Shown here in pieces: positions 16,762 through 48,466 of a stretch of DNA of 64,000 nt. Within the stretch, counting starts at the first letter, position 1, and the number at the start of each line of letters is the position of its first letter. The notes beneath the pieces were generated by a model. That model did no database searches. It had not been told where the DNA came from and saw only the letters and a list, made by a program, of their open reading frames with translations. The position numbers were made by a program, and so were the translations under genes. This stretch comes from Fimicolochytrium jonesii (lineage: Eukaryota), in NCBI RefSeq assembly GCF_025526975.1, contig NW_026515675.1:558001-622000 (forward strand), written 5' to 3'.

Positions 16762-19230
16762 ATGCGCATTCTCAGCTGGAACGTCAACTCCATAAGGACC
16801 CTCAAGGTACCTTCCCAGACAGCACGCTTGAAATGCGGATGCGGATGATCTTCGACCCCTCACACCCTTCATATCCGTGCAGCAATACCACCCATGGAAC
16901 GAGTATAAGAGCTATAGCTCACTGATGGATACACTGGATGCCGGTGAGAGCTGCCTTTTCAGCACCTGAAGCAGGCTATATGTGATTCTACCCAACTAAC
17001 TTTAGCAACTCCTTCGTCCAGATATTGTGTGCTTCCAGGAAATGAAAATATCTCGGAGCAACACTGACTCCGACTTGGCGCTGATACCGGGCTACGACGC
17101 CTTCTTTACATATCCAAAGGTGGGGTGCGAATGCATTGATTTAGTGGCGGGCAAGAGTACCCTTACTAACGGTGGTGTTCAGCGACGACACGGATACTCA
17201 GGAGTCACAACATATGCACGCTCAAAGTATACCCCAGTCAACGCAGAGGAAGGCTTCACCGGCACACTGTGCAACCCTGCCACCTGCAAGGACCCGATCG
17301 GGAGCTACGGCGATATGCTGCAAGAGTTGACACCTGAGGAACTATTAGAGCTCGATAGTGAAGGACGGGTCATGATCACGGATCATCGACTGTTTGTTCT
17401 CATCAATGTGCGTCGAGATGCGAGTGACATTCTGAACGAACGTTCCGACATGCATTACGGGTTTCGAACTGAACTCTCGGCATTCTTAGGCTTATTTCCC
17501 GGTGACGGATCCAGAGCGTGTGGAATTCAGGGCCAGGTCAGGAAGAACACATTGCGAGAGGGCCCGTCGTTGTGATCGCCCTTATTCACGTTCTGTATCG
17601 CAACTCAGAGCAGATTCTATGGAGCAATGAAACACCGAATCGAAGCGCTCCTCGCCGCCGGTCGGGAAGTCATACTTGTTGGCGATGTGAGTGTGTGATG
17701 GTATGAAGGTCGCTGGGGACTCTTTTCCCCCTTCTAACTATCATCTCGAACGGTAGATCAACGCCTGCTATAGTCCCATGGATCACTGTGACCCGAAAAA
17801 AAGTCTCCGAGAGAATGGAATCACTGAATTCCACGATACCCCCACTCGGCGATGGCTCTACGATTTCTTACATCCTAGAGGTCCACTGTACGATACATTC
17901 AGGGTGTTTCATCCGACACAGGAAAAGGCATTTACTTGCTGGAACACCTTACTGAATGCGAGGTAGGCGACTGGCTTCTGTAAAGAGCCCGAACGAAGTG
18001 CGAAGCCTAAAACGTTCCGTTTCATAGACCAGTCAACTACGGTTCGTGTAGCCGGCCGCTTGAGCGCCATAGATCGTTGCATTTCTAACACGGCAATGTC
18101 ACCTAGGAACTCGAATCGACTTCATCCTCTGCAGCAAAGGCGTTCTCCCATGGATCAAAGACAGCACAGTCGAAGCCACCATAATGGGCAGCGACCACTG
18201 CCCCGTCGCCTGCGTCCTCTACGACACTCACCCGACCACCGGCCAGTCACTAGCGGAAGCGATGAACCCGCCGGGTTGGACGGGGGAACGAGTCAGGGAG
18301 CCGGTCAAGCTTTGTGTGAAGTACTGGGACGAGTTTTCGGGGAGGCAGCAGAAGTTGAGCAGTTTTTTTGTGAAGAAGGGGGCTGGGGGGGTGGTGGAGG
18401 CGGCTGCGGGAAAGGCTGGAGTTGTGGAGACCTTTACAAAGGTCGAGTCATCCAATAGGGATGATGTGGCGAACGGCGATGTGGGTGCGGTCGGTGCGAA
18501 TGTGGTCGCTGCGCAAGAAGTTGCATGGAACGCATCAAAGGACTCAACACTTGGCCCGAAACCACCGATCACACTAGCGAGGAAGGTTCCCCGTCCGGAC
18601 AAGAAACCTACCCCACCAACAAGATCAGGGTCATACAAACCAATACCAAAAGGCCAAAAGACCATCGGATCCTTCTTCGCACCCCGCTCCACGCCCTCAA
18701 TACCACCACCACCAGAACCGGACGTCGCACCACCTTCTCAAGGCGCGGACCCCACATCCTCACAACCCTTCTCACAATCCCAGCTGTCAACAGACACGGA
18801 CGTCACATGCTATTCCTCCCCCGTCGACAGCCAAACCGACAGCCAACCCGACTCTCTCTCCCTCCTCGCAACCCCTGAAGCCGCAACCCAATGGCGCGCT
18901 CTCCTCAACCCCAAAGCCCCACCCACCTGCTACCACAACGAGCCCACGAAGCAATGGAAGGTCAATAAACCGGGACCTAACCACGGGCGCGCGTTTTATT
19001 TGTGTCAGAGGCCGATTGGTGCGGAGGTGGAGCCGGTTGTTGGGGCGGGGGATGAGGAGGAGGAGAGGGGGACAGGTCAGGAGAAGGATCCGAAGGTGGT
19101 GTGGAGGAGTAGGAAGAAGGTGGGGGAGCATCGATGTGATTTTTTTCAGTGGAAGAATCCGCCCAAGAGGAGTGGGAGAGGGGCGGTGGGTGAGGGGGAG
19201 GCGCCGGCGGCGAAAAAGTTTAAGCGGTAG
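16762..19230 (+). CDS. APN2: AP endonuclease 2 (ExoIII family) with PIP-box-like motifs and C-terminal GRF zinc finger (multi-exon)
   Basis: MRILSWNVNSIR, DIVCFQEMK, GYSGVTTY, LDSEGRV, FTCWNTLLNARPVNYGTRIDFIL, GSDHCPV, QKLSSFF and CYHNEP...VNKPGPNHGRAFYLCQRP...CDFFQW. Confidence 0.95.
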
Positions 19231-23272: not shown

Positions 23273-26200
23273 ATGGGGTAGGCACTGAAACAGCGAGAGT
23301 CAGCTCCACCCTACCATCACTAATCTTTCCTATCTTGATATCCACAGTGTCCCGGCCCTCTTCCGCTGGCTCTCGCAGAAGTATCCCAAAATTACTTCCC
23401 CCGTAGTTGAAGAGCAACCGCGTGAGATCAACGGCCATGTCATCCCCGTCGACCTCTCGAAGCCCAACCCCAACGAGGAGGAGTTTGACAATCTCTACCT
23501 CGATATGAACGGTATCATCCACCCCTGTTGTCATCCGGAAGGCAAGCCGGCGCCGACCTCGGAGGAAGAGATGTTTGTTGAGATCTTCAAGTACATTGAC
23601 CGTATCATGGGCATGATCCGGCCGAGGAAGGTGCTCTACATGGCCATTGACGGAGTTGCTCCGCGAGCGAAGATGAACCAACAGCGATCGCGACGGTTCC
23701 GCGCCGCCCAGGAAGCGCAGATATTGATTGAGGAGGAGGAGAAGATCCGACGGGAATGGGAAGCCGCGGGAGATGTCTTTCCGGAGAAGGATAAGAAAGA
23801 TCATTTCGATTCCAATTGCATTACGCCGGGAACTCCTTTCATGAGCAATCTGGCGACCGCATTGAGATACTACGTGGCTGATCGGTTACATACCAACCCG
23901 GGATGGCGAAATCTGAAAGTCATTATATCGGATGCTAGTGTGCCCGGTGAAGGCGAACATAAAATCATGGACTACATTCGACGTCAGCGGTCACAAACAG
24001 GATATGATCCCTTCACGCATCATGTCCTGTATGGTCTGGATGCGGATCTTATCATGCTGGCGTTGGCGACCCACGAACCATACTTCAAGATTCTCCGAGA
24101 AGACGTCTTCTTCAAGGACAACAACAACAAAGGTTGTTTCATCTGTGGGCAGTCTGGACATCAAGCAGCGGAGTGCACTGGTACGTTTACTATATCGTTG
24201 GGTTACTCCAATTCTGGGACATGTAACTCACTCGGCCCCACAGGAAAGAAGATGGAGAAGATTGGGGAGTTCGGGGAGAAAAGCACCGGAACGCCGTCAG
24301 ATGAGAAGCCGTTCATTTTGCTTCATGTTAGTGTTCTGCGCGAGTACCTCGAAATAGAATTGAAGGTCACGGATCTTCCGTTCCAATGGAGTCTTGAGCG
24401 GGCCATTGACGATTGGGTGTTCCTCTGCTTCTTCGTTGGGAATGATTTTTTGCCACATTTGCCATCACTGGAAATCCGAGAGGGGGCGATTGACAAACTG
24501 ATCGAGCTGTGGAAGAAGAATCTGTTGCATTGGGGCGGCTACCTTACCGATAGTGGCGAGATCGCCCTGGATCGGGTTCATGCCATGATGGCGGACCTTG
24601 GGAAGGTAGAGGATGAGATCTTCAGGGAGAGAAAGAAATCTGAGGAACGGCGTAAGGATGCTCAGGACCGTAGGAAACGAGAGCAGGCCGATAGGGATCA
24701 GGTCAAAAGCAGCGGTTACGATATGCTCGAGCGCAATAATAGCCACGTGGAAGGTGGCATTGCGGATTTCATGAATGCTGCGATTCCTCCTTCCGTCAAG
24801 ACGCCCGTCAAAAAGCCAGTGATTCCAACTGCCGACGTCAACAAAGCTGCCGCGAATGCTCTCAAAGCTTCGCTGAGGGCGAAAGCGGAAATACAAACGT
24901 CTCCGACGCATGGCACTAAACGCAAAGATCCCGAACCGGAAAACGGAGAGGCTGTCGCAGAAACAGCACCCGTTGAGGACTTGGAGCCAATATCAGACGG
25001 TGAAGACGAAGTTGAACCCGATATTCCTGAGGAAGAGATTGAGGAGACTATGACCGTCGCCGACGTACCCATTCGCCATCTTCCTGTAGTCAAGAAGGCG
25101 GAAGACGACGAGCCTTACGATGACGTGAGGTTGTGGGAATCAGGTTGGAAGCAACGGTACTATCTGAACAAGTTCAAAGTGGAGCCAACCGACGTGGGGT
25201 TCCGCCGCAGGTAAGCAGTTTCGCAAAAGGCATTGACATGAGATTGTTCTGATGTGGCTCTCCTCGACTAGTCTTGTCACATCCTACGTTGAAGGGCTGT
25301 GTTGGGTTTTGAAGTATTATTATCAAGGCGTCCAGTCATGGAAGTGGTTCTTCCCTTACCATTACGCTCCCTTCGCCTCTGACTTCGACTTCATCGATGA
25401 GCTTCACATCACCTTCGAGCTAGGCATCCCGTTCAAGCCCGTTGAGCAGCTCATGGGTGTACTCCCCGCTTTCAGTAAACAGCATATCCCGGCACCCTTC
25501 CGCCCCCTGATGACGGATCCCGAGTCGCCCATCATTGACTTCTACCCGGAGAAGTTCCCCATTGACCTTAATGGAAAGAAGTTTGCTTGGCAAGGTGTTG
25601 CCTTGCTCCCTTTCATTGAGCAAGACCGGTTATTGGAAGCTATGAGCACTCGGTATCACTTGCTGACTGAAGAGGAGGTTATTCGGAATACGAAGGGAGA
25701 GGAAGCCGTTGTTGTTGGCGGTGGTAACAAGCTTTATGAGCCATTCTGTACATTGTATGGACGGCAGACTGACGACGGGGTGAGTGTTCTTGTCATCCGC
25801 AGTTTTTGGTCATCTGCTAGTTTGACGGTGATGTACTAACCCGAAAAACGACTTTCAGCCAATGCCCATTGACCCCAAGAAAAGCCAAAAGTTCTTCGGC
25901 TCGGTATTACCGGACCCCCAAGCGTGTCTACCAGGAAGCACCTACGAGTCCCCACTCGTTGAATATGGCATGCCCGACATCAAGAACAACAAGTCTATAA
26001 GTGTTCTGTACTTCATGCCGGAGTTTGCCCCGGGGCACATCTTCAAAGCGGACCTACTGCCGAATGTGCAGATGCCTCGTCAAATCTTGACTGCCGATGA
26101 CGCTTACGCTGTGAGGATGGGCTATAACAGTCGCGGAAGAGGTCGTGGGAGGGGTCGTGGTCGTGGTGGGGGTCGTGGGACTGCAGATCGATTCATCAGG

Positions 26201-26985
26201 TATGCCGGTGACCAATAATTTGGTATTCCGCCTATTTCTTCCCTGCGTGCTGACAAAGGCAGTTTTCACAGACATGGAGTTGGCGGTGGACGAGATGACT
26301 CGCGCGACCATAACCGGCAAGATGACAGGGGCTCGGGCGGGTACGGACACGATTCCAAAAGGCCGCGTTATGACAATCGGTCACATGACCTACCATACAT
26401 GGGTATGTGCGCGGGATTGAGTTCATTTTTTTCGAACGGGTGACTAACTGCTGCTTTACAGGCGGAGGTGGTTACGAACGATACAACTCGGGGAGCAACT
26501 ACGAACAATCGGGCGGAAGTTATCAGTCGGTGAGTTGAATGACATCTTTTTGCTGGCAGTATCAAAAACCAACCGGCTCCCAACAGTATGGTGGTGGCTA
26601 CACTCCTAACACATATGGGAACCAGCCAGGCGGCTATCAGCAAGGCGGTAGCTACGGTGGTAGTTATCAGCAAGGAGGTGGCGGTTATCAAAGCTCAAGA
26701 GGAGGCGGCGGCTACTATCAAGGAGGAGGAGGGTACCAGGGCGGGAACCAAGGAGGTTACAACTCGTCAGGAGGAGGTTACGGAGGCGGCTACAGCAATT
26801 CACAGTACTCAAGAGATGGGGGACCTCCAGGCGCTGCGTCTGGTCAACAGGGCGGATACGGTAATAATTACGCTCCCGCGCCCCCGAACTTGGCATGGAA
26901 TAGGAACGTGTCTGCCGGTCGCGGGTCGTCGTCATCCCCTGCACAGCGAGGGAGAGGTGGCGGCAGGGGTGGTAGTTATAGATGA
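23273..26985 (+). CDS. XRN2: 5'-3' exoribonuclease 2 (Rat1/Xrn2) with zinc knuckle and RGG/Gly-rich tail (multi-exon)
   Basis: [84 protein letters not shown] and [14 protein letters not shown]. Confidence 0.97.
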
Positions 26986-27492: not shown

Positions 27493-28175
27493 ATGGGTCT
27501 TCCAGTCATCCTCTATCTCCTCGTCTCAGCAACAATCGCAGCAGCGTATCCGACCGGCGCCGGGATCTGCTACGCCAATGAATCCGCCATCGCCGCCGTC
27601 GGATCCATGGGCCCTTCCAACGACAATCTTGGCTACGCGCTGGTGGTCGGCGGCCAGGCTACCTCTTATTCACCGGGGAGGGCGCTGAATGTGACGCTGA
27701 CGGGCAACCAAAACTTCATGGGACTTCTGTTGTATGCCGCCAGCGCGATTGATGCTACCGCCCATGCCGGCACATGGAGTGGGTTGGATGCGGATAAGTT
27801 CATGGTGAGTTGGATGTACTCAGCAATTGTGGTTTGCTACCGGCTTGGACTCATCATCTCTGTTAATCTTATTACAGTTCCTCAACAACGACCAAGGCCC
27901 GGTGGATTGCAGCACGTATGGCATCAATGCCACGGTGACCCACGATAGCCCTATGTCCAAGTCCGTCCCTTTGACGTTTACTTGGTGAGCAAAGAAAAGT
28001 TTCACAATGGTTTGATTACAGTCCCCTTCTGACCCTATTCCTCTTGTGCATCCTTTTCAGGACCCCGTCAAGTACCACAATCGGAGATGTGCATTTCTAC
28101 AGCGTCGTAGTAGTCTCTGATACGGTCGGGTTCCAAGTGCTACAAAGTGCCAAGGCGCTGACCGCAGCAGCTTGA
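27493..28175 (+). CDS. Small secreted reeler-domain protein (3 exons)
   Basis: Signal peptide, then AYPTGAGIC...YSPGRALNVTLTG..FMGLLLYA...C...VTHDSPMSK..LTFTWTP....GDVHFYSVVV. This matches the reeler domain pattern, and the exons splice in frame. Confidence 0.75.
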
Positions 28176-28221
28176 ATCGTTCGTTCATGTGCAAACATGG
28201 GCTTATATTTGCTTATATCTC

Positions 28222-28318
28222 TACAAGTTGCCATCATCGGCGATGCCTCCGGCAGAGGTACAATGATGTGGATGGCAGATAACCACCACGGAAAATGGGA
28301 AGGGGTGAAAACTCTAGA
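28222..28318 (-). ncRNA. Candidate Fanzor omegaRNA scaffold (boundaries unknown)
   Basis: Lies directly 3' of the Fanzor stop. Nested stems on the minus strand: TGCC/GGCA, ATCATTG/CGATGAT and inner CCTC..GAGG. The position is typical of TnpB/Fanzor omegaRNA. Confidence 0.5.
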
Positions 28319-31300
28319 CTACCGGGAGAATGCGTCTGGTCTGCGGCCATTGCCAAGCACCACCGAACGCACAATCGAGAGGAAATTCTTGGTACTTAGG
28401 ACGTCCCGATTGTGCACTTTCATCCGTAGTTGTAGTGGTCGTCTTCCAGGAATCTCAAATGGCGTCCAGTCTTGGTTGATACATTCAGGGTTGGGGCAAC
28501 CCATCAATCCATGGACGAATTCCATTCTTCCCTTTCTAGCTTGCCATGGCCGAGAAGACAGCCGTCGTCGGATGTTTTTCTTCACACGACCGTGGCAGTT
28601 GGGGCACACAGACGACGTTCGATACTCATCTAGCAAGTAGCATGGAATGCTGTTTCTTGCAAAGAGTGTGCGGAATCTGATTTCCATGATGAGTTAGCAT
28701 ATTATAATACATAAAAAGCAATGATGGTCACTCACCCTTTGGTCTTCGATGACTCCTGAAAGCACATGGTTTTTCCAGCGTCGCTCCAATCACCCAAGAT
28801 GACCGAAAAATGCTTTCCATACAGGCGTCGCATGTTCTTGATGAGCTTGCTCTCAGACTTTTGCCGCAGTGAGAACGCCTTGAATCTGCGAGCAACGTGA
28901 ATCTCATCCCGGTAAAACTCATCCAGGGCGGGATCTGGGATATGGATGTCAGCCTATGTATTACCAAATTTGAAAATCAAAGTTGAAGTAGAACATCATA
29001 CCCGCATGTTCGTAATCCACGATGAACGCTGAGAACGCCTCGATGTTCATGCTCTTGTGCGACGGAATCTGTGATTCCATCTCAGCAACGCCGGCATTGA
29101 TCTTCCGCTCTGTCATGTCTCTTCGAAAGTACCGAGACTTTGTCTCGACCGCCTGTTGAGTGGATGTGTATCTGATATGGGGTGGTGCATTGTGAGGACG
29201 CTGCAACGGAATGTCGCCGCAATGGGGATGGTGGGCATAGGGGCGGTGGGAGCGGCAGCGGCGACGGGGGGCTGAGGGGCGGCGACGGGGGGCTGGGGGG
29301 CGGCGACGAGGGGCTGGGGGGCGGAGACGGGGGGCTGGGGGGCAGAGACGGGGATGGAGACGGAGACGGAGACGGAGACGGAGACGGAGACGGAGATGGA
29401 GACGGAGACGGAGACGGGGATGGAGACGGGGATGGAGACGGAGACGGAGATGGAGACGGAGACGGGGGGCTGGCGGGCGGAGACGGGGGGCTGGCGGGCG
29501 GAGACGGGGGGGGGGGGGGGGGGGGGTAGCGGGGACAGCAGGGCAGTAGTAATCAACTGAAACTTACCGAAATGGCTGCTCCTTCTTGTTGTCTCGACAG
29601 AATAGGAGGTCACGCTTGCCCGGATCAATGCAGACAATGTTTGGAGCCTCCCTTAAGTCGTCAATGTGGTACTCAAAATACAGCTGCTTGACTTCTTCCC
29701 GCATTTGGGCCTTGCTGCGCTTCCGGGCCCGATACCCATACTTGAGCCCTGGCTTCTTGAAGTGGATGGTAACGGAATACCCGTCGGTGCTAATTGACCC
29801 ATCGAACTTGAGACCAAGCTTCTTTCGATGTTTGAAGACCTTGTCCTATAATCCGTCATTCAGCGAGGTGATTGAAATAAAGGATACAGACTTAACTTAC
29901 ATTCACATTGAGAAACTGCCCCCACAGCTCCTGCTTGCGTTCATCAGTGAGTTTCCCCATGCGACATCGGCCAACATCCAGGATATGAATGGCTAGGATC
30001 GTCGTGTCAATCTGAACAGATGACTGGATTCGAGATTTGCGCAGCGGGATAGCCGAAAACAGCCGCATTCCACGGCGCTCATAGAGGCGTGAGAGCTCAC
30101 AATAGGCACCTGTGATGTGAGGCGGGTGCGGACCATGATTAGACAAAAGAGGAAGCCGCGGGGGGGGGGGGGGGGGAGCGGAAATATACTAACTCACCTA
30201 AATATGGCATTGCGTCCACCGCAAGGCTGTACGCAAGGGGCTCATCCTGGGGAGAAAACAGAGCCCATAACTTGTCAAGGACGGTCCGCTCAAGGCTTGT
30301 GAGGTGGCCAAACTCCTCTTCGATTGGGTACTCTTCAAACGTTGCGTACTTTGTGAATTGACGGACACGCCGATAACGCTGTTGGCGCTGCGCTTGGCTA
30401 ACTCCGGCTCTCCGAAGATGCAGTACGACTTGCTTCAAACCAAGCCTTTCATTGACATAGCGCAGAAACATTTGCATAAAATGCTCCTGTACGTTGACTT
30501 TGAGGTTGGTGAAGATGCTTGTAGCTGTGTATGCTGCGGTCTGTTGGCTATTTCGCATGCGGATGGGGGCAAATCCGTGAACATTACGGTACTCTTGAAC
30601 CCGTGGACGCAACTCTTGCGCTATGACCGGATTGCCGTTATAGCCCGGATTGTTTAGTAGCTCAAATATCACACTAATGTGCTTGTCGGTGATGTCCGGG
30701 AAATCGTGTAGAGGATGATCAGCTGTGGTGGGGTGGGCAGATGTAGCAGTTAGGACATTGTTATGGGAAATATTATGGGAAATATACAGTGTACCTCAAA
30801 AACTCACCAAGGTAGTACTTGAGGAAGAACGTGGTGTGGCGCGCAAGGACGTGAACATTGCCGAGGAAGGTTGTCAGGCGCTCCCTTTGCACTTGATTGT
30901 GATTACGGACTCGGTGAAGGGAAACCTTCGTGCTGGCATGCGTCTGCGGGCGGGGTCGTTGAATTGGTGGTAGAGGCGGGGGTGGTGGAGGCGGGGGTTC
31001 AAGCACCAGGGATCCACCCGGTGTGCTGGGAAAACGAAAAGGGATGGGAGCGGGGAGGTTCAAAGGGCGCTGAAGACCCCTGTCGACAGGTGAAAGCCCT
31101 CGCTGCTGGTGCTGTTGCCCGTCTTCATCGCCAGAACTCTCGCTAACCATGTCCGCGATTGCTTGGGGCAAGTGGCGTTGGACAGATGGTGGGAACTTGA
31201 ATCGAGGGCGCGGGGGCTGCAATGGCGTCTGTACGGCGGGTGGCAGACGTATGGGCAACCACGGGGTAACTGGAGCAACCTTCCTCCTCTTCCGCCGTGG

Positions 31301-31363
31301 TGTGGTTACTCCGGTGAAGATGCCACACCACAGGTGCCCCTGGAGCGCCTGGTGTGATGACAT
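28319..31363 (-). CDS. Fanzor1-type RNA-guided DNA endonuclease (TnpB/Cas12 relative), 7 exons, 764 aa, apparently intact
   Basis: Exons 31363-30808, 30722-30198, 30109-29901, 29845-29568, 29171-29002, 28934-28736 and 28676-28319 total 2295 nt with consistent phases and GT-AG introns. Motifs: FDGSISTDGYSV, RuvC-I VCIDPGKRDLL, ILGDWS, RuvC-II LLDEYRTSSVCPNC, VHGLMGCPNPEC and RuvC-III HNRDVLSTKNF. Confidence 0.92.
29236..29535. repeat. G-rich mini/microsatellite (about 21-bp GGCGGCGACGGGGGGCTG units, (GGAGAC)n, poly-G) in Fanzor intron 4 (29172-29567)
   Basis: Tandem repeats visible directly. Confidence 0.9.
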
Positions 31364-31385
31364 GATGGCTGTGCTGTGCCTAGAG

Positions 31386-31922
31386 TGTTATGATCTCGAC
31401 GACAGGGCGGAAGCGAAGTAGAGAAGACAGGGCGAGTGTGATGGGCGACAAGAGATTGTATTGGCGAAACAAGAAACAAGGATTAGAACAGGAGATGAGA
31501 AGAACTGGTGTTGATCTGCTGGGGAGGAAGGGAATAGACAAAGAGAGGCCAGCTATTTATAGATAGGCAACCCAGCAGATCAGAGAACAACAACAACAAG
31601 AGGGGACTGGGGGGCGCCAGCTATGCTCCTAGAGCGTGCGTGGCGAGCGTAGAGAGCATTGCTACAGCTGCTGGCTATGGGGAAGCAGTGGGGGGTGTGG
31701 AGAAGCCGAGGGGGGATTGGCGAAATGAGAGGAGAGAGGAGGAGTGGCGATATTGCAAGAGGATTGGCGAAATGAGAGGAGAGAGGGGGAGTGGCATTGA
31801 CATTGACATCGACACTGACATTGACACTGACATGGACATTGACATTGGCGTTTGACATTTGGCGGTTGACATTGGCGGCTGTCAGTAGGTAAGCTTATGG
31901 TATGGGCGCGTCGTCCATAACA
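31386..31922 (-). repeat. 3' LTR of element A
   Basis: TGTTATGATC...CCATAACA, near-identical to 47099-47635. Minus-strand TATAAA at 31561-31556. Contains a GACATT-type hexamer tract. Confidence 0.95.
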
Positions 31923-31934
31923 TCACCCCTCTCT

Positions 31935-34900
31935 TTAGCGGTGGCGGCGGCGGCGTCGAGTTTGGTGTGGCCGCAGAGGAGGTGCTACGGGGACAGAGGA
32001 AGGCTTGTTGGGGTACGCGCTGTGGAAGTCCTGGAGGAGTGCGTCGGTATGGGTGAGGTGTTCCACGGGCTCCCAGGTGTTCTCGGAGTCAGGCCAGCCC
32101 TGCCATTTGACCAAGTACTGAAGGCGACGACAATGGATGCGAGAGTCAAGGATGGCTTCGACAACCCACTCTTCTTGACCCTCAACGGTCTCTGGGGGCG
32201 CGGGTTCGGGTTCGTGTCGTTCGGGGATGGTGAAGCGGGGTTCGAGGAGCGAGACATGGACAACATCGTGGATTTTGTACGTAGGCGGGAGCTTGAGCCG
32301 GTAGGCGACGGGATTGATTTTTTCAACGATGGGGAATGGCCCAATCTTGCGATGGTCAAGTTTCTGAGAGGGCCGGGTTGTCTGGAGGTTTTTGCGGAGG
32401 AGCCAGACGTGGTTGCCAGGCTTGAAGTCCGGTCCAGGAATTGGTTTAGCGTCGGCGTAGCGCTTCATTTGATCTTGGGCTTCCTTGAGCTCGAGGGCGA
32501 GCTGTTCATGGACTTCCCTGATTTGTTTAGCGCGGGCTTCAGCGGCAGGGTTGACGGATTCGGAGGTAGCGGAGGCCGCGAAACTGAAGCGGGGGTGGAG
32601 ACCCTTGTTGGCGTAGAAGGGGGTGGCCTGGGAGGCGGACTGGTGGGTGTTGTTGTAGGCAAACTCGGCGGACGACAGAAGCTGTTTCCAGTTGTCCTGC
32701 TGGTGGGTGCAAAAGCATTGGAGATACTGCTCCAGGATCTGGTTGGTGTGTTCCGTCTGGCCATTGCTCTGGGGGTGGAAGGCCGAGGAGAGGTTGGCTT
32801 TTGCCCCAAGGAGTTCGAGAAGTCGACGCCAGAACCGGGACTTAAACCGGGGTCCTCGGTCAGAGATGACGTCGTCGGGGAGGCCGTGGAGACGGATGAT
32901 GTTGTGGAAGACTAGGTCGGCGGTGGATTCGGCGGATTCTGACTCGCTGCAGGCGATGAAGTGGGCCATCTTGGTGAGGCGACAGTTGACGTTCAGGATG
33001 GAGTTGTACCCGTCCACAGGAGGCAGACCGGTGATAAAGTCCAGGGACCAAGATCCCCAAGGGCGGGTAGGGATACTGTTGGGCTGGAGTAGGCCATATG
33101 GTTTGTGTCGACTGGATTTCGCTTGGCTACAGGTATCGCAGGACTTGATGTAGGCCTTGACGAAGGGCCACTGGCTGGGCCACCAGTAGTTGCGGGAGGC
33201 GAGTTCGAGCGTCTTGGACATCCCAAAGTGGCCGGCTAGGGGTGTATCGTGCATGTCGTGGCAGACTTCAGCTCGGAGCTCGTTGGTGGGGACATAGACC
33301 AGTTTATCGTGCAGCAGGATCCCATCTTCATCTGAGAACCGCTTGATACGATCTTGGGTTTCCTCGGTTCGTTGGGCGAGGGGTATCTTGAGCTTTTCGC
33401 GAATGGTCTTAGCGAGGGGATCAGAGGCCTGGGCGGCCTTAATCTTGTCAAGCAGCGTGGTATCCATGGGTGTGAGGTAGGCCGCGGCGAGTTGAAGGCG
33501 TTCGGGAGTCAAAATTGTGGTTGCCTGGGAGCGGAACGCTTCTTCCCCCTCTTTTAGCTCATGTTCGGAGCGTCGGGAGAGGGCATCGGCTTGGTGCTGC
33601 TGGGAACCGGGGCGATAGGTAATGACAAAGTCAAAATCCGAGAAGAATATCGACCAGCGGGCTTGACGGCGGTTCAGGGTGCGGGTGGTCATGAAGTACT
33701 GAAGGTTTTTGTGGTCGGAGTAAACGGTGATCGTGTGACGGGCGCCAATGAGATGGTGGCGCCACTGGGCAAAGGAGTCTTGGATGGCCAGAAGTTCCTT
33801 GTCGTAGATCTCGTAGTTGATCTCTTCGGCCGTGGATTTGCGAGAGTGGAAGGCCACGGGGTGGAGCTGATTGTCCTGGTCAGGTTGGAGGAGAACTGTG
33901 CCAAGAGCGAAGTCGGAGGGGTCAGTTTCGACGACGAAGGGCTTCTCTGGGTCAGGGTGAGCAAGGATGGGGGCGGTGGTGAATGCTTTCTTCAGGTTCT
34001 CGAAGGCAGTGTTTGCGGCGGGTGTCCAGGCGTACGGGATGTCTTTCCGGGTCAGGGCTGTGGGCGGGGTAGCGATCTTGGAATAACCTTGGATGAATCG
34101 GCGATAGAAGTTGGCAAAGCCGAGGAACCGCTGGACGCCTTTGACATTCTTGAGAGGTTCCCAATCCGTGATGGCAGCGATCTTCTTGGGGTCCATCTGG
34201 ATGCCTTTCTTGGAGATGATGAAGCCTAGGAACTCAACGGATTCGCGGTTGAATTTGCACTTCTCTGGTTTGGCGTACAACCCATGCTGTCGGAGGCGCG
34301 ACAAGACTTCGCGGATATGTTTGGGGTGATCTTCGGGGTTCTTGGAGAATATCAGGATATCGTCGAGGTAGGCAACAACAAACACATCGAGAATGTTGCG
34401 GAAGATGTCGTTCATCAGGTACTGGAAGACGCCAGGAGCATTGCTGAGTCCAAAGGGCATTGTATTCGAATAGGCCGTAGCGGCAGCGGAAGGCGGTCTT
34501 CCATTCATCGCCCGGGCGCATGCGTAAAAGGTTATAAGCGCCGCGAAGGTCGATCTCCGTGAGACGGCGGGCGCCGCGCAAACGATCCATGATACCGTTG
34601 ATCAGGGGCAGGGGGTAGCGATTCTTCACCGTGATGCTGTTCAGGCCTCGATAATCCACGCAGAGGCGGAGAGAACCGTCCTTTTTCTTCACGAATAAGA
34701 CTAGCGCACCGGCAGCGGACTTTGAGGGTTTGATGAATCCTTTGGCGAGGTTTTCTTCGAGGTATTCGCAGAGTGCCTTCATTTCTGGTTCGCTGAGGCT
34801 GTAGATCGGGCCGAAAGGTGGCTGCTTGCCTTCTTCCAGATCGATTGGACAGTCGTAGGGCCAGTGCTCGGGGAGAGTGTCAGCATTTCTCTTTTCGAAA

Positions 34901-35655
34901 ACGTCGGCTAAGTCTTGATACTTGGGGGGCAGGAAGTCTTTGATGTCTTTCTCGGGTGTCGGGGGGTTACTGGGGCTAGGCAAGGGCGGGAGATCGGGTT
35001 TCGCAGGGTTGGCGTAGGCGACAAAGACCTGGTCATGCCTTGCTGCGACCCGGAAGGCTGGGGCGGAGATGAACGAGACTCGGAGCGGCGTGGGAGCCGG
35101 TTCTGGGGTGCTGGAGCGAGATACCTTGGGTACTGGAATCGACCATGTTTCGTCGACGGGGACTTCATCCTGGGGGATGTGGATCAAGGGCTCGGGGGTT
35201 CTGGCGTGTGCTGGGCTCGGGGGTGCTGGAGAGTTGTCCCAATTCGCAAATTCAAGGTACTGACAGTCGCAACGGAAACCGACCGAAAGGTTCTTGAAGT
35301 CAAGGTTAATGTCGTGGAGGCAGTGCCAGGGGAGACCAAGGAGGATTGGAGCATGGGGTGATTTGGTGACATGGAAGACGAGTTCTTCGAAGTGGTCGTC
35401 GACCCACATGCCTACTGGTTGGGTGTGATGGGTGATTGGCCCAGCAGAGCTGGGTTGACCGTCAACGAGTTCGATCGTCAGTGGACGCTGATGCGGGACT
35501 AGAGCGATGCGGTGTTTGCGGGCAAAGTCTCTGTCGATGAAGCAGGACAGGGCACCGTTGTCGATCATGGCTGAGGTAGGTATCGGGGCGCGGCTGGATG
35601 ATACCATGATGGTAACGGGGTAGTTGAAGGGTTCGAGGGGACCCAGCGCAAGCAT
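31935..35655 (-). pseudogene. pol: pol of element A (PR-RT-RH-IN-chromo), frameshifted in RT near 34460
   Basis: IDNGA protease, [27 protein letters not shown]...SDRG...QSNGQTE and chromodomain EWVVEAILDSR...YLVKWQGW. The frame breaks at YGLFEYN/MPFG. Confidence 0.9.
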
Positions 35656-36979
35656 GGCGCGGGGGTTAATTTCGGAGTTATCGACATGGGCAGCGGCTAG
35701 GAGGGTTGTGTCGGCTCTAACGGAGTCCGGAACCAGGGGGGTGGCCTCTCCCGTTGCAGGAGCTGCGAGGTTAGGAGGCCCGGGGCGGTGTGTGTTGTCC
35801 AGTCGCTGGGGCTTTACTGCGGCTGGACTTTGGGAAAACCCTGTTTGGTGGAGGGTTCTTTGATGTCGACGTTGGCGGCACGGGTGGTGGTCTTGTTCTT
35901 GACGGGGCAGACTTTTGCAATGTGCCCCGCGCCACCGCAGTAAAGGCAGAGGTTGTTGGAAATGCGGCGTTGGCGTTCCTGAGGGCTCAGAGGGCCGCGG
36001 AGACGAGCGGCGTCAATCTGCATAGGCTCGCTGTGGTCGCCAGTGGTGGTAGTAGTAAACGAGGTGTGGGGAACCGGGAAGGTCTGGCGGCTTCTGTTTC
36101 GCTCCAGGCGGCGCTCAAACAGCCGGTTATCGCACTGGATAGCCTGCTCCATCACCACATCAATGGTGGCCGCAGGGGGCATTGTGAGCATCAGGTCTTT
36201 GACGTCTTCTTTGAGGCCACGGCGGAAGGTAGCAATCAGGGCCTGGTCGTTCCAGGAGACATCGCATTGTAGCTGGCGGAACTCAGCGACGTACTCGGTT
36301 GCTGCACGGGTTTGGCGAAGGTTCTGGAGCTTGTTTTCAGAGGTGCGGACCCTGTCGCTGTCTCCGAAGACCGATTGCAACTGACTGATAAAACTATTGA
36401 AGTCCTGAAGGCTGTGATCTGGGCGTTCGACTAGGGGTGTTATGAATGGGCAGAGCCGATGGAAATAGAGGCGACTTGTGGTGCAGGTTGTTGACAGGTA
36501 ATGGTATTCAGACCGAAACAAGAACTAGAACAAGACTAGGAAGAACTGGTGTTGATCTGCTGGGGGATCAGGAAGTGGGGAGCTCAGGGGAGGCGGCTAT
36601 TTATGTTTTTCTGGGAAGGCTGGGGAAGCGTGGGGAAGCAGAAGGGTACGGAATGAGAGGGAAGCCAAGAGAAGCGCCAAGGGTGGGGAAGCATAGAAAC
36701 AGAAGACTGGGGATGGGGTGGCTACGCTGAGGCTGTGGGCGGGTACGTGGGGAAGTATGGAGAAGGGTTTGTAAGCGCCGAGTGTTGGGAGGTGTGGCTA
36801 CGTGCGGCTGCGTGGGGAAATGAAGGCAGTGGCAGGTGTGGGGTAGCGCGGCTGCGTGCGGCTGCGAGGTTTGGCAGATGTCAGGTTTTGACAGGGAACT
36901 GACATTGACTGACTGTTGGGATGCTGTCATGAGGTAAGCGCATGGTATGGACGCGTCGTCCATAACATCACCCCCTCCT

Positions 36980-39900
36980 TTAGCCACGGCGTCCGGATGT
37001 TGTTTTGATGTTGGCAGGCTTTGGTTGGGGTTTGTCGGGGTACTTTTGGTGGAACTGGGCAACAAGCTCTTGACATCGGGCAAGGTGTTCCACTGGCTCC
37101 CATGTGTTCTCCGAGCTTGGCCAACCCTGCCACTTGATGAGGTACTGAAGGTGCGTGCGTCGAACACGGGAGTCAAGAATGTCTTCCACAATCCATTCCT
37201 CCTGTCCTTCGACTTCTTCTGGTGGGGTGGGTTCTGGCTCAGTTCGCTCCGGAATGGTGAAACGTGGTTCAAGAAGGGAGACATGGAAGACGTTGTGAAT
37301 TTTGTAGGATGGGGGAAGCTTGAGGCGATATGTGACCGAGTTGATCTTCTCCGTGATTGTGAAGGGGCCAATCTTACGGTGATCAAGTTTCTGGGAAGGT
37401 CGGAGAGTCTTGAGATTCCGCTGTAAGAGCCAGACACTGTCGCCGGGTTTCATGTCTGGGCCAGGTGCCCTCTTAGCATCGGCAAAGCGCTTCATGCATC
37501 CTTGGGCCTCCTTGAGCTCAGTGGCAAGCTGTTCATGGATTTCCTTGAGATGGTTGGCACGAGCTTCGGCTGCAGGATTAAGGGATTCGGTTAGTGGTGG
37601 CGGAAGCCAGACTGAATCGAGGATGGAACCCATAGTTGGCGTAGAAGGGGGTTGTCTGGGTGGCGGAGTGGATGGTGTTATTGTAAGAGAACTCAGCAGA
37701 AGACAAGAGTTCCTTCCAGTTATCTTGTTGATAGTTGCAAAAGCAGCGAAGGTATTGCTCAAGAATCTGATTGGTCCGCTCGGTTTGTCCATCGCTCTGG
37801 GGATGGAACGCCGATGAGAGGTTGACCTTGGTTCCCAGGAGAGCGAAGAGACGTTTCCAGAAGTGGGAGTTGAACTGTGGGCCACGGTCAGATACAATAT
37901 CGTCGGGGAGTCCATGGAGCCGGATGACATGGTGCCAGATCAGATCTGCAGTTGACTCAGCGGTGGCAGTTTTCCTGCACGGTACAAAGTGCGCCATCTT
38001 GGTGAACCGGCAGATGACAACGAGCACAGAATCAACCCCATCACTGGCGGGTAGATCCGTGATGAAGTCCATGGAAATTGACCCCCAGGGGCGGTCAGGG
38101 ACCTGCAGGGGTTGGAGGAGACCGTAGGGCTTGTGTCTGCTGGTCTTGGCTTGAGCACATACGTCGCAGGACCTGATGTAGGACTTGACAAAACGCCACT
38201 GGCTAGGCCACCAGTAGTTGCGTGAGATGAGCTCCAGGGTCTTTGACATGCCGTAGTGTCCTGCCAAACGCGTGTCATGCATGTCCCGGCAGATCTCAGC
38301 ACGGAGCTTGTTGGTGGGGACGTAGACAAGGTTGTCGTACAGCAGAACCCCATTTTCCTCGGAGAATCGCTTTATCCGTTCTTGGTCTTCTTGAGATTGC
38401 TGGGCAATGGGGGCCCTAAGCTGTCGCCGGATGGTTTGCGCAAACACATCGGATGCCAGGGCAGCTTTGATTTGGTCAAGGAGCGAGGAGTCCAGTGGGG
38501 TCAGATAAGTGGCGGCCAGGCGGAGATGGTCAGGGGTGAGGATCGTGGTTTCCTGGGAGCGGAATGCTTCTTCCCCCTCCCTTAGCTCGTATTCAGAGCG
38601 ACGAGAGAGGGCGTCAGCTTGGTGTTGCTGGGTACCAGGGCGGTATGTGATGACAAAGTCGAAATCAGCAAAGAAGATTGACCAGCGGGATTGGCGGCGG
38701 TTGAGGGTACGGGTAGTCATGAAGTACTGGAGGTTCTTGTGGTCACAGTAAACGATGACCTTGTGGCGGGCACCAATGAGGTGGTGTCGCCATTGAGCAA
38801 ATGAGTCTTGGATAGCCAGGAGTTCCTTGTCGTAGATCTCATAGTTGATTTCCTCAGGAGTAAATTTGCGGGAGTGAAAGGCCACGGGGTGGAGTTGATC
38901 TGTGTCATCGGGTTGAAGGAGGACGGCGCCAAGGGCAAAGTCGGAGGCATTGGATTCGACAATGAAGGGCTTGTCAGGGTCGGGGTGAGTCAGGATAGGT
39001 GCGGAGGTGAAGGCTTTCTTGAGGGTTTCAAAAGCTAGGTGTGCAGCGTGGGTCCATTTGAATGGCAAGTCTTTGCGAGTGAGCGTGGTCAGGGGTGCAA
39101 CGATCGCAGAGTACCCTTTGATGAATCGCCGGTAGAAGTTGGCAAAACCAAGGAAGCGCTGGATGCCTTTGACATTCGTCGGGGGTTCCCATTCGGTAAT
39201 GGCAGCCGTCTTCTTTGGGTCCATGGAAATGCCTTGCTGGGAGATGATAAACCCCAGGAACTCAACAGAGTCACGGTTGAATTCGCATTTTTCCGGTTTC
39301 GCATACAGCCCGTGCTGGCGGAGTCGTGAGAGCACCTCTCGGACGTGGTTGGGGTGGTCTTCTGGGTTTTTTGAGAAGATCAGAATGTCGTCAAGGTAGA
39401 CCACAACAAAAACGTCGAGAATGTCACGGAATATGTCGTTCATGAGGTGTTGGAATACTCCAGGGGCATTGGTGAGCCCAAACGGCATGACATTATACTC
39501 GAATAGGCCGTAGCGACATCGGAACGCTGTCTTCCATTCATCCCCTGGCCGGATCCGAAGAAGGTTGTAGGCTCCCCGGAGGTCAATCTTGGTGAGCCGG
39601 CGTGCCCCTCGAAGACGATCCATGATGCTGTTAATCAAGGGCAAGGGATAGCGATTCTTGATGGTGATATTGTTGAGTCCACGATAGTCGACGCACAGAC
39701 GGAGGGAACCGTCCTTTTTCTTGACAAAGAGGACTGGGGCACCGGCGGGAGACTTGGAGTGCTTGATGAACCCCTTAGCTAGGTTCTCTTCAAGGTAGTC
39801 ACAGAGTGCCTGCATTTCAGGCTCGCTGAGACTATAGATCGGGCCGAACGGTGGCTGTTTGCCCTCTTCTAAGTCGATGGGACAGTCGTAGGGTCGGTGC

Positions 39901-40649
39901 TCTGGGAGGGTATCCGCGTTCTTCTTGGCGAAGACGTCCGCAAAATCTTGGTATTCTTCAGGAATGATGGCCTTCGGATCTTTTGGAGGAGTGGTCGCCA
40001 GGGCTTGGGAATCTGACTTGGTTGGATTGGCGTAGGCAATGAATGCCTGGTCATGCCTTGCCGCCACACGGAAAGCTGGGGCGCTGATAAACGATACGTG
40101 GATCGGTGTGGGTGCTGGGTCCAGTGTGTTGGGTGTCTGGGCCAGGGAGACTGAAATCTCGTCTTGATGGATACGGATCAGAGGTTCAGGGGTTCTTGAG
40201 GGCTTCGGGCTAGGTTCTGTTGGCAGGGCATCCCAGGAGGCGTATTGTCCAAAACCGCAATGGCAGCGGACGCAAAGGGTGCGAGTCTTCCAATGTAGCT
40301 CCACATCATGGAGCTCAAACCAGGGAAGCCCCAGGATGATTGGCGCATGCGGGGAACATGTCACATGGAATACCACCTCCTCAAAATGGTCGTTGACCCA
40401 CATGCCCAAAGGTTGGGTGTGATGGGTAATGGAGCCCGCATGGCTGGGACATCCGTCAACCAGTTCAAGCGCAATGGGGCCCTCCTTCTTGACAAGTGGG
40501 ATGCGGTGCTTGCGGGCATAACTTTCGTCGATGAAGCACGACATCGCACCGGTGTCGAGTAGTGCTGAAAGCTGAACTGGAGCTCGCTGGGCCGATATCT
40601 GCAGGGTAACAGGGTACTCGAATGGTGAGGATGGGCCCAAAGTCCGCAT
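36980..40649 (-). pseudogene. pol: pol of outer B, with a frameshift near 37590 separating the IN C-terminus/chromodomain
   Basis: 1023-aa ORF (LLDTGA, YLDD, IN core) that ends ASATTNRIP. The expected continuation ESLNPAAEAR...EWIVEDILDSR lies in another frame. Confidence 0.88.
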
Positions 40650-40807
40650 GGGTGAGGGTATCTCAGATAGGAGATTGACATTGTTGGTGGTCAGGAGAAG
40701 GGTGTTGCTGGAGATGCCAGGATCGGAGCAAGGTTTTGTGGCTTCTCCCTTGGCAGTACTTGCGTGGTGAGAAGGCCCAGGACAGGTGTTGCCCAGCTGC
40801 TCGGCCT

Positions 40808-43800
40808 TTACTGCAGCTGGACTTGGGCAAAATCCTGGATGGGTGGAGGTTCCTTAACCGCGACAATCGCCGTGCGTATCTTGTTCGGGCAGAGTTTGGC
40901 TATGTGGCCGGGTTTACCACAGTAGAGGCAAAGTTTGTTTGTGATGCGGTGTTGGCGCTCTAGCGGTGTGAGGGGTCCTCGCGGACGAGCAGCGTCAATG
41001 ATCATAGGGTCGTCTGGGCGGTTGTCGGGGCTCATGAGGGTGGGGCTAGTGGTAACTGGCACATATGGCTGTCGGTTCCTGCTTCGCTCTAGACGGCGCT
41101 CAAACAATCGGTTGTCACATTGGATGGCCTGTTCCATCACGGTGTCGATTGAGGCGGTACGGGGCATCGTGAGCATTAAGTCCTTGACGTCTTCTTTGAG
41201 GCCGCGACGGAAGGTGGCAATCAATGCCTGGTCATTCCACGACACATCGCATTGCAGCTGTCGGAATTCAGCTACATACTCTGTTGCTGCACGGGTTTGT
41301 CGAAGGTTCTGGAGCTTGGTTCCCAGGAGAGCGAAGAGACGTTTCCAGAAGTGGGAGTTGAACTGTGGGCCACGGTCAGATACAATATCGTCGGGGAGTC
41401 CATGGAGCCGGATGACATGGTGCCAGATCAGATCTGCAGTTGACTCAGCGGTGGCAGTTTTCCTGCACGGTACAAAGTGCGCCATCTTGGTGAACCGGCA
41501 GATGACAACGAGCACAGAATCAACCCCATCACTGGCGGGTAGATCCGTGATGAAGTCCATGGAAATTGACCCCCAGGGGCGGTCAGGAACCTGCAGGGGT
41601 TGGAGGAGACCGTAGGGCTTGTGTCTGCTGGTCTTGGCTTGAGCACATACGTCGCAGGACCTGATGTAGGACTTGACAAAACGCCACTGGCTAGGCCACC
41701 AGTAGTTGCGTGAGATGAGCTCCAGGGTCTTTGACATGCCGTAGTGTCCTGCCAAACGCGTGTCATGCATGTCCCGGCAGATCTCAGCACGGAGCTTGTT
41801 GGTGGGGACGTAGACAAGGTTGTCGTACAGCAGAACCCCATTTTCCTCGGAGAATCGCTTTATCCGTTCTTGGTCTTCTTGAGATTGCTGGGCAATGGGG
41901 GCCCTAAGCTGTCGCTGGATGGTTTGCGCAAACACATCGGATGCCAGGGCAGCTTTGATTTGGTCAAGGAGCGAGGAGTCCAGTGGGGTCAGATAAGTGG
42001 CGGCCAGGCGGAGATGGTCAGGGGTGAGGATCGTGGTTTCCTGGGAGCGGAATGCTTCTTCCCCCTCCCTTAGCTCGTATTCAGGGCGACGAGAGAGGGC
42101 GTCAGCTTGGTGTTGCTGGGTACCAGGGCGGTATGTGATGACAAAGTCGAAATCAGCAAAGAAGATTGACCAGCGGGCTTGGCGGCGGTTGAGGGTACGG
42201 GTAGTCATGAAGTACTGGAGGTTCTTGTGGTCACAGTAAACGATGACCTTGTGGCGGGCACCAATGAGGTGGTGTCGCCATTGAGCAAATGAGTCTTGGA
42301 TAGCCAGGAGTTCCTTGTCGTAGATCTCATAGTTGATTTCCTCAGGAGTAAATTTGCGGGAGTGAAAGGCCACGGGGTGGAGTTGATCTGTGTCATCGGG
42401 TTGAAGGAGGACGGCGCCAAGGGCAAAGTCGGAGGCATTGGATTCGACAATGAAGGGCTTGTCAGGGTCGGGGTGAGTCAGGATAGGTGCGGAGGTGAAG
42501 GCTTTCTTGAGGGTTTCAAAAGCTAGGTGTGCAGCGTGGGTCCATTTGAATGGCAAGTCATTGCGAGTGAGCGTGGTCAGGGGTGCAACAATCGCAGAGT
42601 ACCCTTTGATGAATCGCCGGTAGAAGTTGGCAAAACCAAGGAAGCGCTGGATGCCTTTGACATTCGTCGGGGGTTCCCATTCGGTAATGGCAGCCGTCTT
42701 CTTTGGGTCCATGGAAATGCCTTGCTGGGAGATGATAAACCCCAGGAACTCAACAGAGTCACGGTTGAATTCGCATTTTTCCGGTTTCGCATACAGCCCG
42801 TGCTGACGGAGTCGTGAGAGCACCTCTCGGACGTGGTTGGGGTGGTCTTCTGGGTTTTTTGAGAAGATCAGAATGTCGTCAAGGTAGACCACAACAAAAA
42901 CGTCGAGAATGTCACGGAATATGTCGTTCATGAGGTGTTGGAATACTCCAGGGGCATTGGTGAGCCCAAACGGCATGACATTATACTCGAATAGGCCGTA
43001 GCGACATCGGAACGCTGTCTTCCATTCATCCCCTGGCCGGATCCGAAGAAGGTTGTAGGCTCCCCGGAGGTCAATCTTGGTGAGCCGGCGTGCCCCTCGA
43101 AGACGATCCATGATGCTGTTAATCAAGGGCAAGGGATAGCGATTCTTGATGGTGATATTGTTGAGTCCACGATAGTCGACGCACAGACGGAGGGAACCGT
43201 CCTTTTTCTTGACAAAGAGGACTGGGGCACCGGCGGGAGACTTGGAGTGCTTGATGAACCCCTTAGCTAGGTTCTCTTCAAGGTAGTCACAGAGTGCCTG
43301 CATTTCAGGCTCGCTGAGACTATAGATCGGGCCGAACGGTGGCTGTTTGCCCTCTTCTAAGTCGATGGGACAGTCGTAGGGTCGGTGCTCTGGGAGGGTA
43401 TCCGCGTTCTTCTTGGCGAAGACGTCCGCAAAATCTTGGTATTCTTCAGGAATGATGGCCTTCGGATCTTTTGGAGGAGTGGTCGCCAGGGCTTGGGAAT
43501 CTGACTTGGTTGGATTGGCGTAGGCAATGAATGCCTGGTCATGCCTTGCCGCCACACGGAAAGCTGGGGCGCTGATAAACGATACGTGGATCGGTGTGGG
43601 TGCTGGGTCCAGTGTGTTGGGTGTCTGGGCCAGGGAGACTGAAATCTCGTCTTGATGGATACGGATCAGAGGTTCAGGGGTTCTTGAGGGCTTCGGGCTA
43701 GGTTCTGTTGGCAGGGCATCCCAGGAGGCGTATTGTCCAAAACCGCAATGGCAGCGGACGCAAAGGGTGCGAGTCTTCCAATGTAGCTCCACATCATGGA

Positions 43801-47098: not shown

Positions 47099-47635
47099 TG
47101 TTATGATCTCGACGACGGGGCGGAAGCGAAGTAGAGAAGACAGGGCGAGTGTGATGGGCGACAAGAGATTGTATTGGCGAAACAAGAAACAAGGACTAGA
47201 ACAGGAGATGAGAAGAACTGGTGTTGATCTGCTGGGGAGGAAGGGAATAGACAAAGAGAGGCCAGCTATTTATAGATAGGCAACCCAGCAGATCAGAGAA
47301 CAACAACAACAAGAGGGGACTGGGGGGCGCCAGCTATGCTCCTAGAGCGTGCGTGGCGAGCGTAGAGAGCATTGCTACAGCTGCTGGCTATGGGGAAGCA
47401 GTGGGGGGTGTGGAGAAGCCGAGGGGGGATTGGCGAAATGAGAGGAGAGAGGAGGAGTGGCGATATTGCAAGAGGATTGGCGAAATGAGAGGAGAGAGGG
47501 GGAGTGGCATTGACATTGACATTGACACTGACATTGACACTGACATTGACATTGACATTGGCGTTTGACATTTGGCGGTTGACATTGGCGGCTGTCAGTA
47601 GGTAAGCTTATGGTATGGGCGCGTCGTCCATAACA
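47099..47635 (-). repeat. 5' LTR of element A
   Basis: Near-identical to 31386-31922. On the minus strand it is followed by the PBS-position sequence TTGATCTGCT. Confidence 0.95.
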
Positions 47636-48353: not shown

Positions 48354-48466
48354 TGCGAGTGCCCATATCCAGGCTACACCTCAAGCGATAGGGAAGTCGA
48401 AAGAACGAATGCGAGTGCCCATATCCAGGCTACACCTCAAGCGATAGGGAAGTCGAAAGAACGAAT
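48354..48466. repeat. Perfect 56-bp tandem duplication
   Basis: TGCGAGTGCCCATATCCAGGCTACACCTCAAGCGATAGGGAAGTCGAAAGAACGAA starts at 48354 and again at 48410. Confidence 0.9.

Follow-up and report, generated by a model that had tools for sequence, protein, structure and literature searches.

A Fanzor1 gene of Fimicolochytrium jonesii raises the question of whether an RNA-guided endonuclease gene with six introns is a working nuclease, a mobile element, or a gene being taken over by its host. The gene lies on the minus strand (31363–28319) of a stretch of 64,000 nucleotides (RefSeq assembly GCF_025526975.1, contig NW_026515675.1, positions 558,001–622,000), the whole of which is called the window. 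An earlier note made from the sequence alone had described the gene as catalytically intact and heavily intronised, and as a non-autonomous element or one on the way to domestication. The results suggested that the gene most probably belongs to a non-autonomous, likely selfish family, and that this copy is a recently isolated, slowly decaying passenger.

The Fanzor1 gene was composed of seven exons, which joined into 2295 nt encoding 764 amino acids and a TAG stop codon, with no internal stops. The six introns (85, 88, 55, 396, 67, and 59 nt; phases 1,1,0,2,1,2) all had GT...AG ends. A CTRAY-like branch sequence was found 18–33 nt from the acceptor in four of the six, and retention of any one intron gave a premature stop. 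This was exactly the structure given in the earlier note. The gene had already been annotated, starting at a later Met and without the Fanzor name, as the public model P0080 (KAI8822135.1, 'uncharacterized protein', F. jonesii, order Spizellomycetales). P0080 was identical to residues 72–764 of the spliced protein (693/693, 100%) and had the same junctions. P0080 and the paralog entries are automated gene models, and splicing in vivo is here inferred from sequence. The coding sequence (CDS) of SpuFz1, the Fanzor1 of Spizellomyces punctatus, is a single exon without introns, and a single continuous alignment to it kept all six junctions in register, with zero gaps at the junction residues. Since the model agreed with P0080 and its junctions were in register with an intronless homolog, it is not a product of chance. 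The junction 9-mers (at least 7 of 9 letters) were found again in 15, 13, 20, 28, 41, and 65 of 109 proteins, P0080 counted.

The protein can be identified by sequence comparison and structure modelling as a Fanzor1 of the SpuFz1 lineage. SpuFz1 was the top Protein Data Bank (PDB) match for each of the three exons searched, namely exon 4 (E 4.2e-17), exon 2 (E 5.6e-21), and exon 7 (E 5e-29). The spliced protein had 42.6% identity to SpuFz1 over 652 columns. D504, E663, and D737 aligned to D383, E541, and D606, the catalytic residues of SpuFz1 according to PMC10432273, and the C4 zinc finger and most omegaRNA-contact residues were conserved. The Fanzor/TnpB C-terminal motif, given in PMC3627910 as D-X(125,275)-[TS]-[TS]-X-X-C4 zinc finger-X(5,50)-RD, was present as D504, T666-S667, C670/C673/C706/C711, and R736-D737. 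The Fanzor1-conserved glycine and the rearranged glutamate before the zinc finger, numbered G500 and E536 in SPu-1-1p (PMC3627910), were found as G627 and E663, which aligned to SpuFz1 G505 and E541. All five motifs quoted in the earlier note were located in the spliced protein: CIDPGKRD at 502, GDWS at 627, DEYRTSSVCPNC at 662, VHGLMGCPNPEC at 700, and NRD at 735.

These features were distributed over the exons, all on the minus strand, as follows. Exon 1 (30808–31363) contained the ATG, a proline-rich N-terminal extension of about 123 aa with a basic PRRKRRK stretch (predicted nuclear localization signal, NLS), and the start of the WED/REC region. The alignment to SpuFz1 began only at aa 124, after this extension. 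Exon 2 (30198–30722) encoded REC, with Q245, Q246, and A249 at the positions of Q129, Q130, and N133, which contact the target-adjacent motif (TAM) in SpuFz1. Exon 3 (29901–30109) encoded WED with R408 (SpuFz1 R291) and a change private to this copy, R393Q. Exon 4 (29568–29845) contained the end of WED, Y466 (Y345), the RuvC-I residue D504, and G506. Intron 4 (29172–29567; 396 nt, 71% GC) was full of 6-, 12-, and 21-nt repeats and, if retained, would give a stop codon at its start. Exon 5 (29002–29171) encoded RuvC helices, exon 6 (28736–28934) GDWS and the RuvC lid, and exon 7 (28319–28676) the RuvC-II residue E663, the zinc finger, the RuvC-III residue D737, and the stop codon.

The three-dimensional structure of P0080 was modelled by AlphaFold, with SpuFz1 included in the input alignment (pLDDT, the per-residue confidence, 83.9; pTM, the overall confidence, 0.80); pLDDT was below 50 for aa 72–136. 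The model matched the WED, enlarged REC, RuvC, and TNB fold. The best Foldseek match was 9ceu (SpuFz1), with E 5e-52 and a TM score of 0.89 over the target and 0.78 over the query; SpuFz1 structures together gave E of about 1e-51 and TM 0.86–0.89 over the target. The top seven matches were all Fanzor1, including PpFz1 (E 1.6e-31) and GtFz1 (E 2.1e-18), and Cas12f, TnpB, and others followed far behind at E 3.5e-6 or weaker. In a FastTree tree of 38 of the 109 proteins, which carried long-branch warnings and had no Fanzor2 or TnpB outgroups, all 11 F. jonesii rows formed one short-branched clade, sister to a Gaertneriomyces protein, in the group with SpuFz1. The sequence ranking and the tree agreed on a eukaryotic Fanzor1 grouping with SpuFz1 and Mucorales homologs. 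The Fanzor1 identity and RuvC triad proposed in the earlier note were supported by both sequence and structure. Neither the exons nor P0080, nor even SpuFz1 itself, reached the cut-off of a Pfam family; exon 7 had only a weak TNB match (E 0.009), and a precomputed label, PF26935, had no name attached.

The gene was not alone in its genome. Three homology searches and a cluster look-up gave 64 gene models of the Fanzor1 family in F. jonesii, most of them 80–95% identical. Sixty-two of these were examined for contigs and coverage; they sit on at least 32 contigs. The number of loci is lower than that of models, since in some cases a single locus is split between two models. Of the 62, only this copy and P0079 covered at least 95% of the core (aa 140–764), and the partial ones may reflect damaged copies or faulty annotation. 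The N-terminal extension was confined to F. jonesii paralogs (15/15 matches). The family likely consists of young, probably selfish, non-autonomous elements, and the non-autonomous status proposed earlier was supported. Multicopy elements with no transposase and with Ty3 insertions into family loci are also described for Spu-1, the element of SpuFz1, in PMC10432273. There, Saito et al. reported that the Spu-1 ends enclose no transposase and that 11 SpuFz1 loci have embedded genes, Ty3 among them. The nearest homolog found outside the species was Gaertneriomyces sp. HDU85_005947 (P0017, unannotated), the sister branch in the tree, with 51% identity over 640 columns. It differed in having no N-terminal extension and in retaining the asparagine of SpuFz1 N385.

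The region downstream of the stop codon was compared with the SpuFz1 omegaRNA. The right end is predicted to encode a SpuFz1-like omegaRNA of about 98 nt, that is, an 83-nt scaffold (28214–28296, minus strand) and about 15 nt of flank. The scaffold, which has two stems and ends in TA at the predicted right end (alternative end 28222), would begin 22 nt after the Fanzor1 stop, compared with 21 nt in SpuFz1, and is longer than the 75-nt SpuFz1 scaffold. The predicted 15-nt guide from the host flank (28199–28213, minus strand) was placed according to the SpuFz1 layout and had no second match in the window. By eye, 14 of the first 19 scaffold positions were equal to SpuFz1, including the protein-contacting U5, C6, C7, U16, U18, and C19. 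Three of the five mismatches (9, 11, and 12) lay in stem 1 and, also by eye, were compensated on the other strand with one bulged base. The fold of 28296–28214 had stem 1, a 5-nt linker, a long stem 2 closed by U35-A and G36-U, and the TA end as in SpuFz1. It had a z of −2.0, with 9 of 200 shuffles as good, and its ends were picked after other folds scoring −0.6 to −2.1. The 5' motif and stem were similar in two metagenome relatives (three sequences in all), and Rfam gave no match above the gathering score.

The features of a Spu-1-type element were found only in part. The multicopy state without a transposase between the ends was found (64 same-species models), and the right end finished in TA. 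Terminal inverted repeats (TIRs) of about 30 bp were not found within the window, and in place of a single intronless open reading frame (ORF) of about 2.1 kb there were six introns. The best alignment of the right end with 47636–49500 scored 20, and the shuffled mean was 23. The right-end pattern matched only itself in the window; loose matches numbered 4, and 4.1 were expected. Nor did five related loci show an evident TIR pair.

A retrotransposon block adjoined the gene. The nested Ty3/Gypsy chromovirus block (31386–47635, minus strand; 16.25 kb) ended 22 nt before the Fanzor1 ATG. The long terminal repeats (LTRs) of the outer element (47635–47099 and 31922–31386, minus strand; 537 bp) had four differences, and those of the inner element (46649–46120 and 36967–36438, minus strand; 530 bp), which was inserted in the outer gag, had three. 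The parts of a chromovirus were found, namely TG...CA LTRs, target site duplication (TSD), gag, protease, reverse transcriptase (RT), RNase H, integrase, and chromodomain. The inner TSD was an exact 5 bp, and the outer element had a purine tract before its downstream LTR and a gag ORF after its upstream LTR. The outer pol was split in two frames inside RT (34234–36012 and 31935–34601). The inner element contained tandem duplications (37824–41318 / 41312–44806, 99.8%; 44958–45803 / 45804–46649, 98.9%), which may be real or assembly artefacts. The earlier statement that no transposase lay nearby was correct for DNA transposases, with none of their Pfam families in seven ORFs between positions 47.6 and 49.6 kb, but it passed over the LTR retrotransposons beside the gene.

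The DNA at 47636–47860 (minus strand), probably the native upstream region of the Fanzor element, appears to have been pushed away by the Ty3 block. Two stretches in it, 47856–47797 and about 47760–47736, recurred in P0043 beside Fanzor exons in another order (18/20 aa and 8/8 aa, translated), and this recurrence suggests that 47636–47860 is a displaced part of the element; no TIR was located there. With the Ty3 block removed (47636–47825 joined to 31364–31380, minus strand), no stop interrupted the Fanzor frame over about 70 codons ahead of the ATG, none of them Met; this may be fortuitous or may reflect a longer exon on the upstream side. Farther out, 48280–48720 contained a perfect 56-bp tandem duplication (48354–48465), several short related repeats, and a TATA-like site near 48720 (minus strand); these repeats may mark the terminus of a different element or belong to the left arm of the Fanzor element. 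Two models on other contigs of the same species were also informative. In P0052, the Fanzor model passed from exon 2 into an LTR of this same family lying in the reverse orientation (10/11 aa, translated), and on this match it is a second Ty3 insertion into the Fanzor1 family. In P0043, a tyrosine-recombinase-like ORF (PF00589, E 5.6e-4, below the cut-off) was joined to the upstream motifs and Fanzor exons; it could be an adjacent DIRS/Crypton-like element or a candidate mobiliser.

The amino acid changes of this copy were investigated against its paralogs and outside homologs. R529Q in exon 5 (SpuFz1 R407) and R637C in exon 6 (SpuFz1 R515) were private to this copy. Arginine occupied the first position in 31/32 paralogs and 38/43 outside homologs, and the second in 45/45 paralogs, with R or K in 36/36 outside homologs. 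N527T in exon 5 (SpuFz1 N405) was at a position with N in 32/33 paralogs and 42/43 outside homologs, and the T was common to one paralog. SpuFz1 R407 contacts the DNA backbone of the heteroduplex (PMC10432273), and the RuvC lid, SpuFz1 residues 506–522, is reported to be crucial for activity. The 'R514' that holds the unwound strand according to Xu et al. (PMC11423790) is presumably R515 of the 638-aa sequence, because the neighbouring numbers in that paper run one lower. In total, 21 positions departed from a paralog consensus of at least 75%, each change being common to at most one paralog. A CpG transition fitted 8 of these 21 private changes, compared with 4% of all possible single missense changes, in a count that assumes the ancestral codon, an assumption that favors the decay result. 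The replacement of SpuFz1 N385 by G506 was also considered as a sign of inactivity and was rejected, since G is found at this position in the active GtFz1 and PpFz1 as well.

The analysis directly showed the reading frame, the triad, the fold, the multicopy state, the insertion of Ty3, and the substitutions. Since the Ty3 block lies 22 nt before the ATG and conserved DNA-contacting positions are changed, this copy is likely decaying, and reduced activity or silencing is inferred. The description of the gene as catalytically intact applied to the frame and the triad, but the copy has N527T, R529Q, and R637C at conserved positions and the Ty3 block on its 5' side. Several points weighed against decay and isolation. 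The reading frame and all 12 splice sites were intact, and this was one of only two full-core models among 62. The conserved D451 was kept where 24/29 paralogs have N, which places the copy among the better preserved. The CpG observed/expected ratio of the CDS was 0.92, within the 0.91–1.02 of six host-gene regions, with no bulk depletion. The outer TSD matched at 4/5 positions with one mismatch, so the two flanks were possibly not adjacent before the insertion. In 47636–49500 no left TIR matched the right end, unlike in Spu-1. In addition, the adjoining LTR could act as a promoter of the Fanzor1 gene. The odds that the unmodified protein is active in vitro are roughly even, and another family copy may be better than this one for nuclease tests.

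The last of these points leads to the strongest alternative, in which the gene encodes an active nuclease now transcribed from the 3' LTR of the recent retrotransposon, the private substitutions being tolerated. The outer 3' LTR (31386–31922, minus strand) is in the orientation of Fanzor1 and has TATAAA at 31561, and no ATG occurs in the 198 nt before the Fanzor1 start, so read-through expression is possible on these sequence features. The frame, the triad, and the predicted scaffold are intact, and GtFz1 and PpFz1, with G at the N385 position, are reported as DNA cleavers. However, R529Q loses the backbone contact of SpuFz1 R407, R637C is inside the crucial lid, and 3' LTRs normally end transcripts. 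This explanation was considered unlikely. If true, one mobile element would have switched on the RNA-guided nuclease of another. A bolder version, in which a lineage-specific family gained six introns at novel positions and a disordered N-terminus, spread without Spu-1-like TIRs, and here has a fresh chromovirus 3' LTR driving an active nuclease that uses a new TAM and an 83-nt omegaRNA, was considered somewhat less likely again.

Domestication, with the introns and NLS as signs of a host gene, was judged very improbable. The six introns, the basic N-terminal stretch, the lack of a transposase and of a left TIR, and the flanking host genes would agree with it. However, the introns and the N-terminus are common to many dispersed paralogs and therefore predate this copy, and mobile Fanzor1 commonly has introns. 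The private missense changes at conserved sites and the retrotransposon in the 5' region also speak against it. The suggestion of the earlier note that the gene was on the way to domestication was not borne out, because it belongs to a large and young family of closely similar copies, few of them with a full core, and has itself substitutions of the decay type. Equally improbable was that the whole family is a weak or non-cutting RNA-guided DNA binder through family-wide changes at metal- and omegaRNA-contact positions: N385 to G (G506 in 33/34 paralogs), N480 to L, W603 to H, and R572 to A are fixed in the paralogs, and SpuFz1 N385 helps coordinate Mg (PMC10432273), but the triad is kept in 33/34, 46/46, and 40/40 of the paralog models spanning the respective site, and the active GtFz1 and PpFz1 carry D-P-G at RuvC-I.

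Under the preferred explanation of a selfish family with one decaying copy, the intact family members would express an omegaRNA of about 98 nt besides their spliced mRNA. By analogy with SpuFz1, the Fanzor1 would bind the right-end omegaRNA, and the ribonucleoprotein (RNP) would cleave double-stranded DNA beside the TAM, a short motif. The RNP would cut empty alleles matching the flank, and repair would copy the element back; a transposase acting in trans would move the element. Cutting of empty sites would probably aid the persistence of the element. The TAM-contact residues Q129, Q130, R291, and Y345 of SpuFz1 were conserved. Because N133 is replaced by A and the R96 loop is 5 aa shorter, the TAM may plausibly differ from the CATA of SpuFz1.

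The introns were compared with those of related loci. A metagenome scan with a single Fanzor1 protein gave no relative among 232 pattern matches, and a scan with the Fanzor1 alignment gave 10 related loci. No intron-sized insertion was found at the F. jonesii junction positions spanned in these 10 loci. Their own introns had other positions: following aa 275 (junction given for L001, L002, L004, L005, and L007), at aa 705 (L002, L003, and L005), and near aa 656 (L004). These positions point to introns gained independently in each lineage. The density of 2.6 introns per kb was unexceptional; Chlamydomonas Fanzor1 genes have five and ten exons (PMC3627910), and the published density reaches about 9.6 per kb (PMC10530073). 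A viral scan gave five distant Fanzor-like ORFs (L011–L015; 20–25% identity), two of them in one 259-kb contig.

The F. jonesii protein was compared with characterized systems. It resembled SpuFz1 (PMC10432273; PDB 8GKH and 9CEU) in the nuclease, triad, zinc finger, and fold, and in the position, 5' end, and two-stem layout of the scaffold; it differed in its six introns, its N-terminal extension, and the N385, N133, and R96-loop changes. Like the CRe-1/2/3 elements of Chlamydomonas reinhardtii (PMC3627910, PMC10530073), it is a multi-exon Fanzor1 of non-autonomous elements, and CRe elements have a noncoding RNA from the 3' region. Unlike here, the CRe genes are in Helitron2 elements of a green alga; none was seen in this case, where Helitron features were not searched for. 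PpFz1 (Parasitella parasitica, 9CF0) and GtFz1 (Guillardia theta, 9CER; PMC11423790) share the Fanzor1 fold and the D-P-G at RuvC-I, but identity to them was only 16–20%, PpFz1 carries an additional insertion domain in RuvC, and the third catalytic position of GtFz1 is N.

No paper on the F. jonesii Fanzor1 family was found, and the single paper with both Fanzor and Fimicolochytrium had Fanzor only in its references. The species name and accessions were absent from the supplements of Saito and Jiang, but 'Spizellomyces' does not occur in the Jiang files either and two Saito PDFs were unread, so exclusion from the mined sets does not follow. The family was previously unlabelled and is near enough to SpuFz1 (43%) for residue-by-residue reading of published structures. 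Given its altered TAM-contact residues, the family could reasonably be considered as a source of a compact genome editor that uses a different TAM. A single genome with dozens of recent copies is also a natural data set on the role of Fanzor in its host, such as homing or aid to a transposase in trans, and on the speed at which mobile genes acquire introns. Intron-rich Fanzor1 genes and Ty3 insertions into SpuFz1 loci are already published, and existing knowledge of Fanzor is unchanged; the main use of the family is as a modest nuclease-mining lead. The family size, the Ty3 block, and the rare changes at conserved positions had been missed by the earlier note.

Host genes flank the Fanzor/Ty3 block on both sides. 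A spliced gene at 27494–28176 (plus strand) encodes a small Reeler-domain protein that is apparently secreted (Pfam PF02014, 22.8 bits, cut-off 21). It is convergent with Fanzor1, its stop and the predicted element end are about 38 nt apart, and the predicted guide lies just beyond this stop. The genes at 377–3157, 17006–19230, 23289–26985, and 49509–56000 are presumably LETM1-like, AP-endonuclease-like, XRN2-like, and MyTH4-FERM myosin genes, respectively. A 38-bp inverted repeat (10971–11008 / 11254–11291; 97% complementary, 245 nt apart) looks like a miniature inverted-repeat transposable element (MITE) or another small non-autonomous element.

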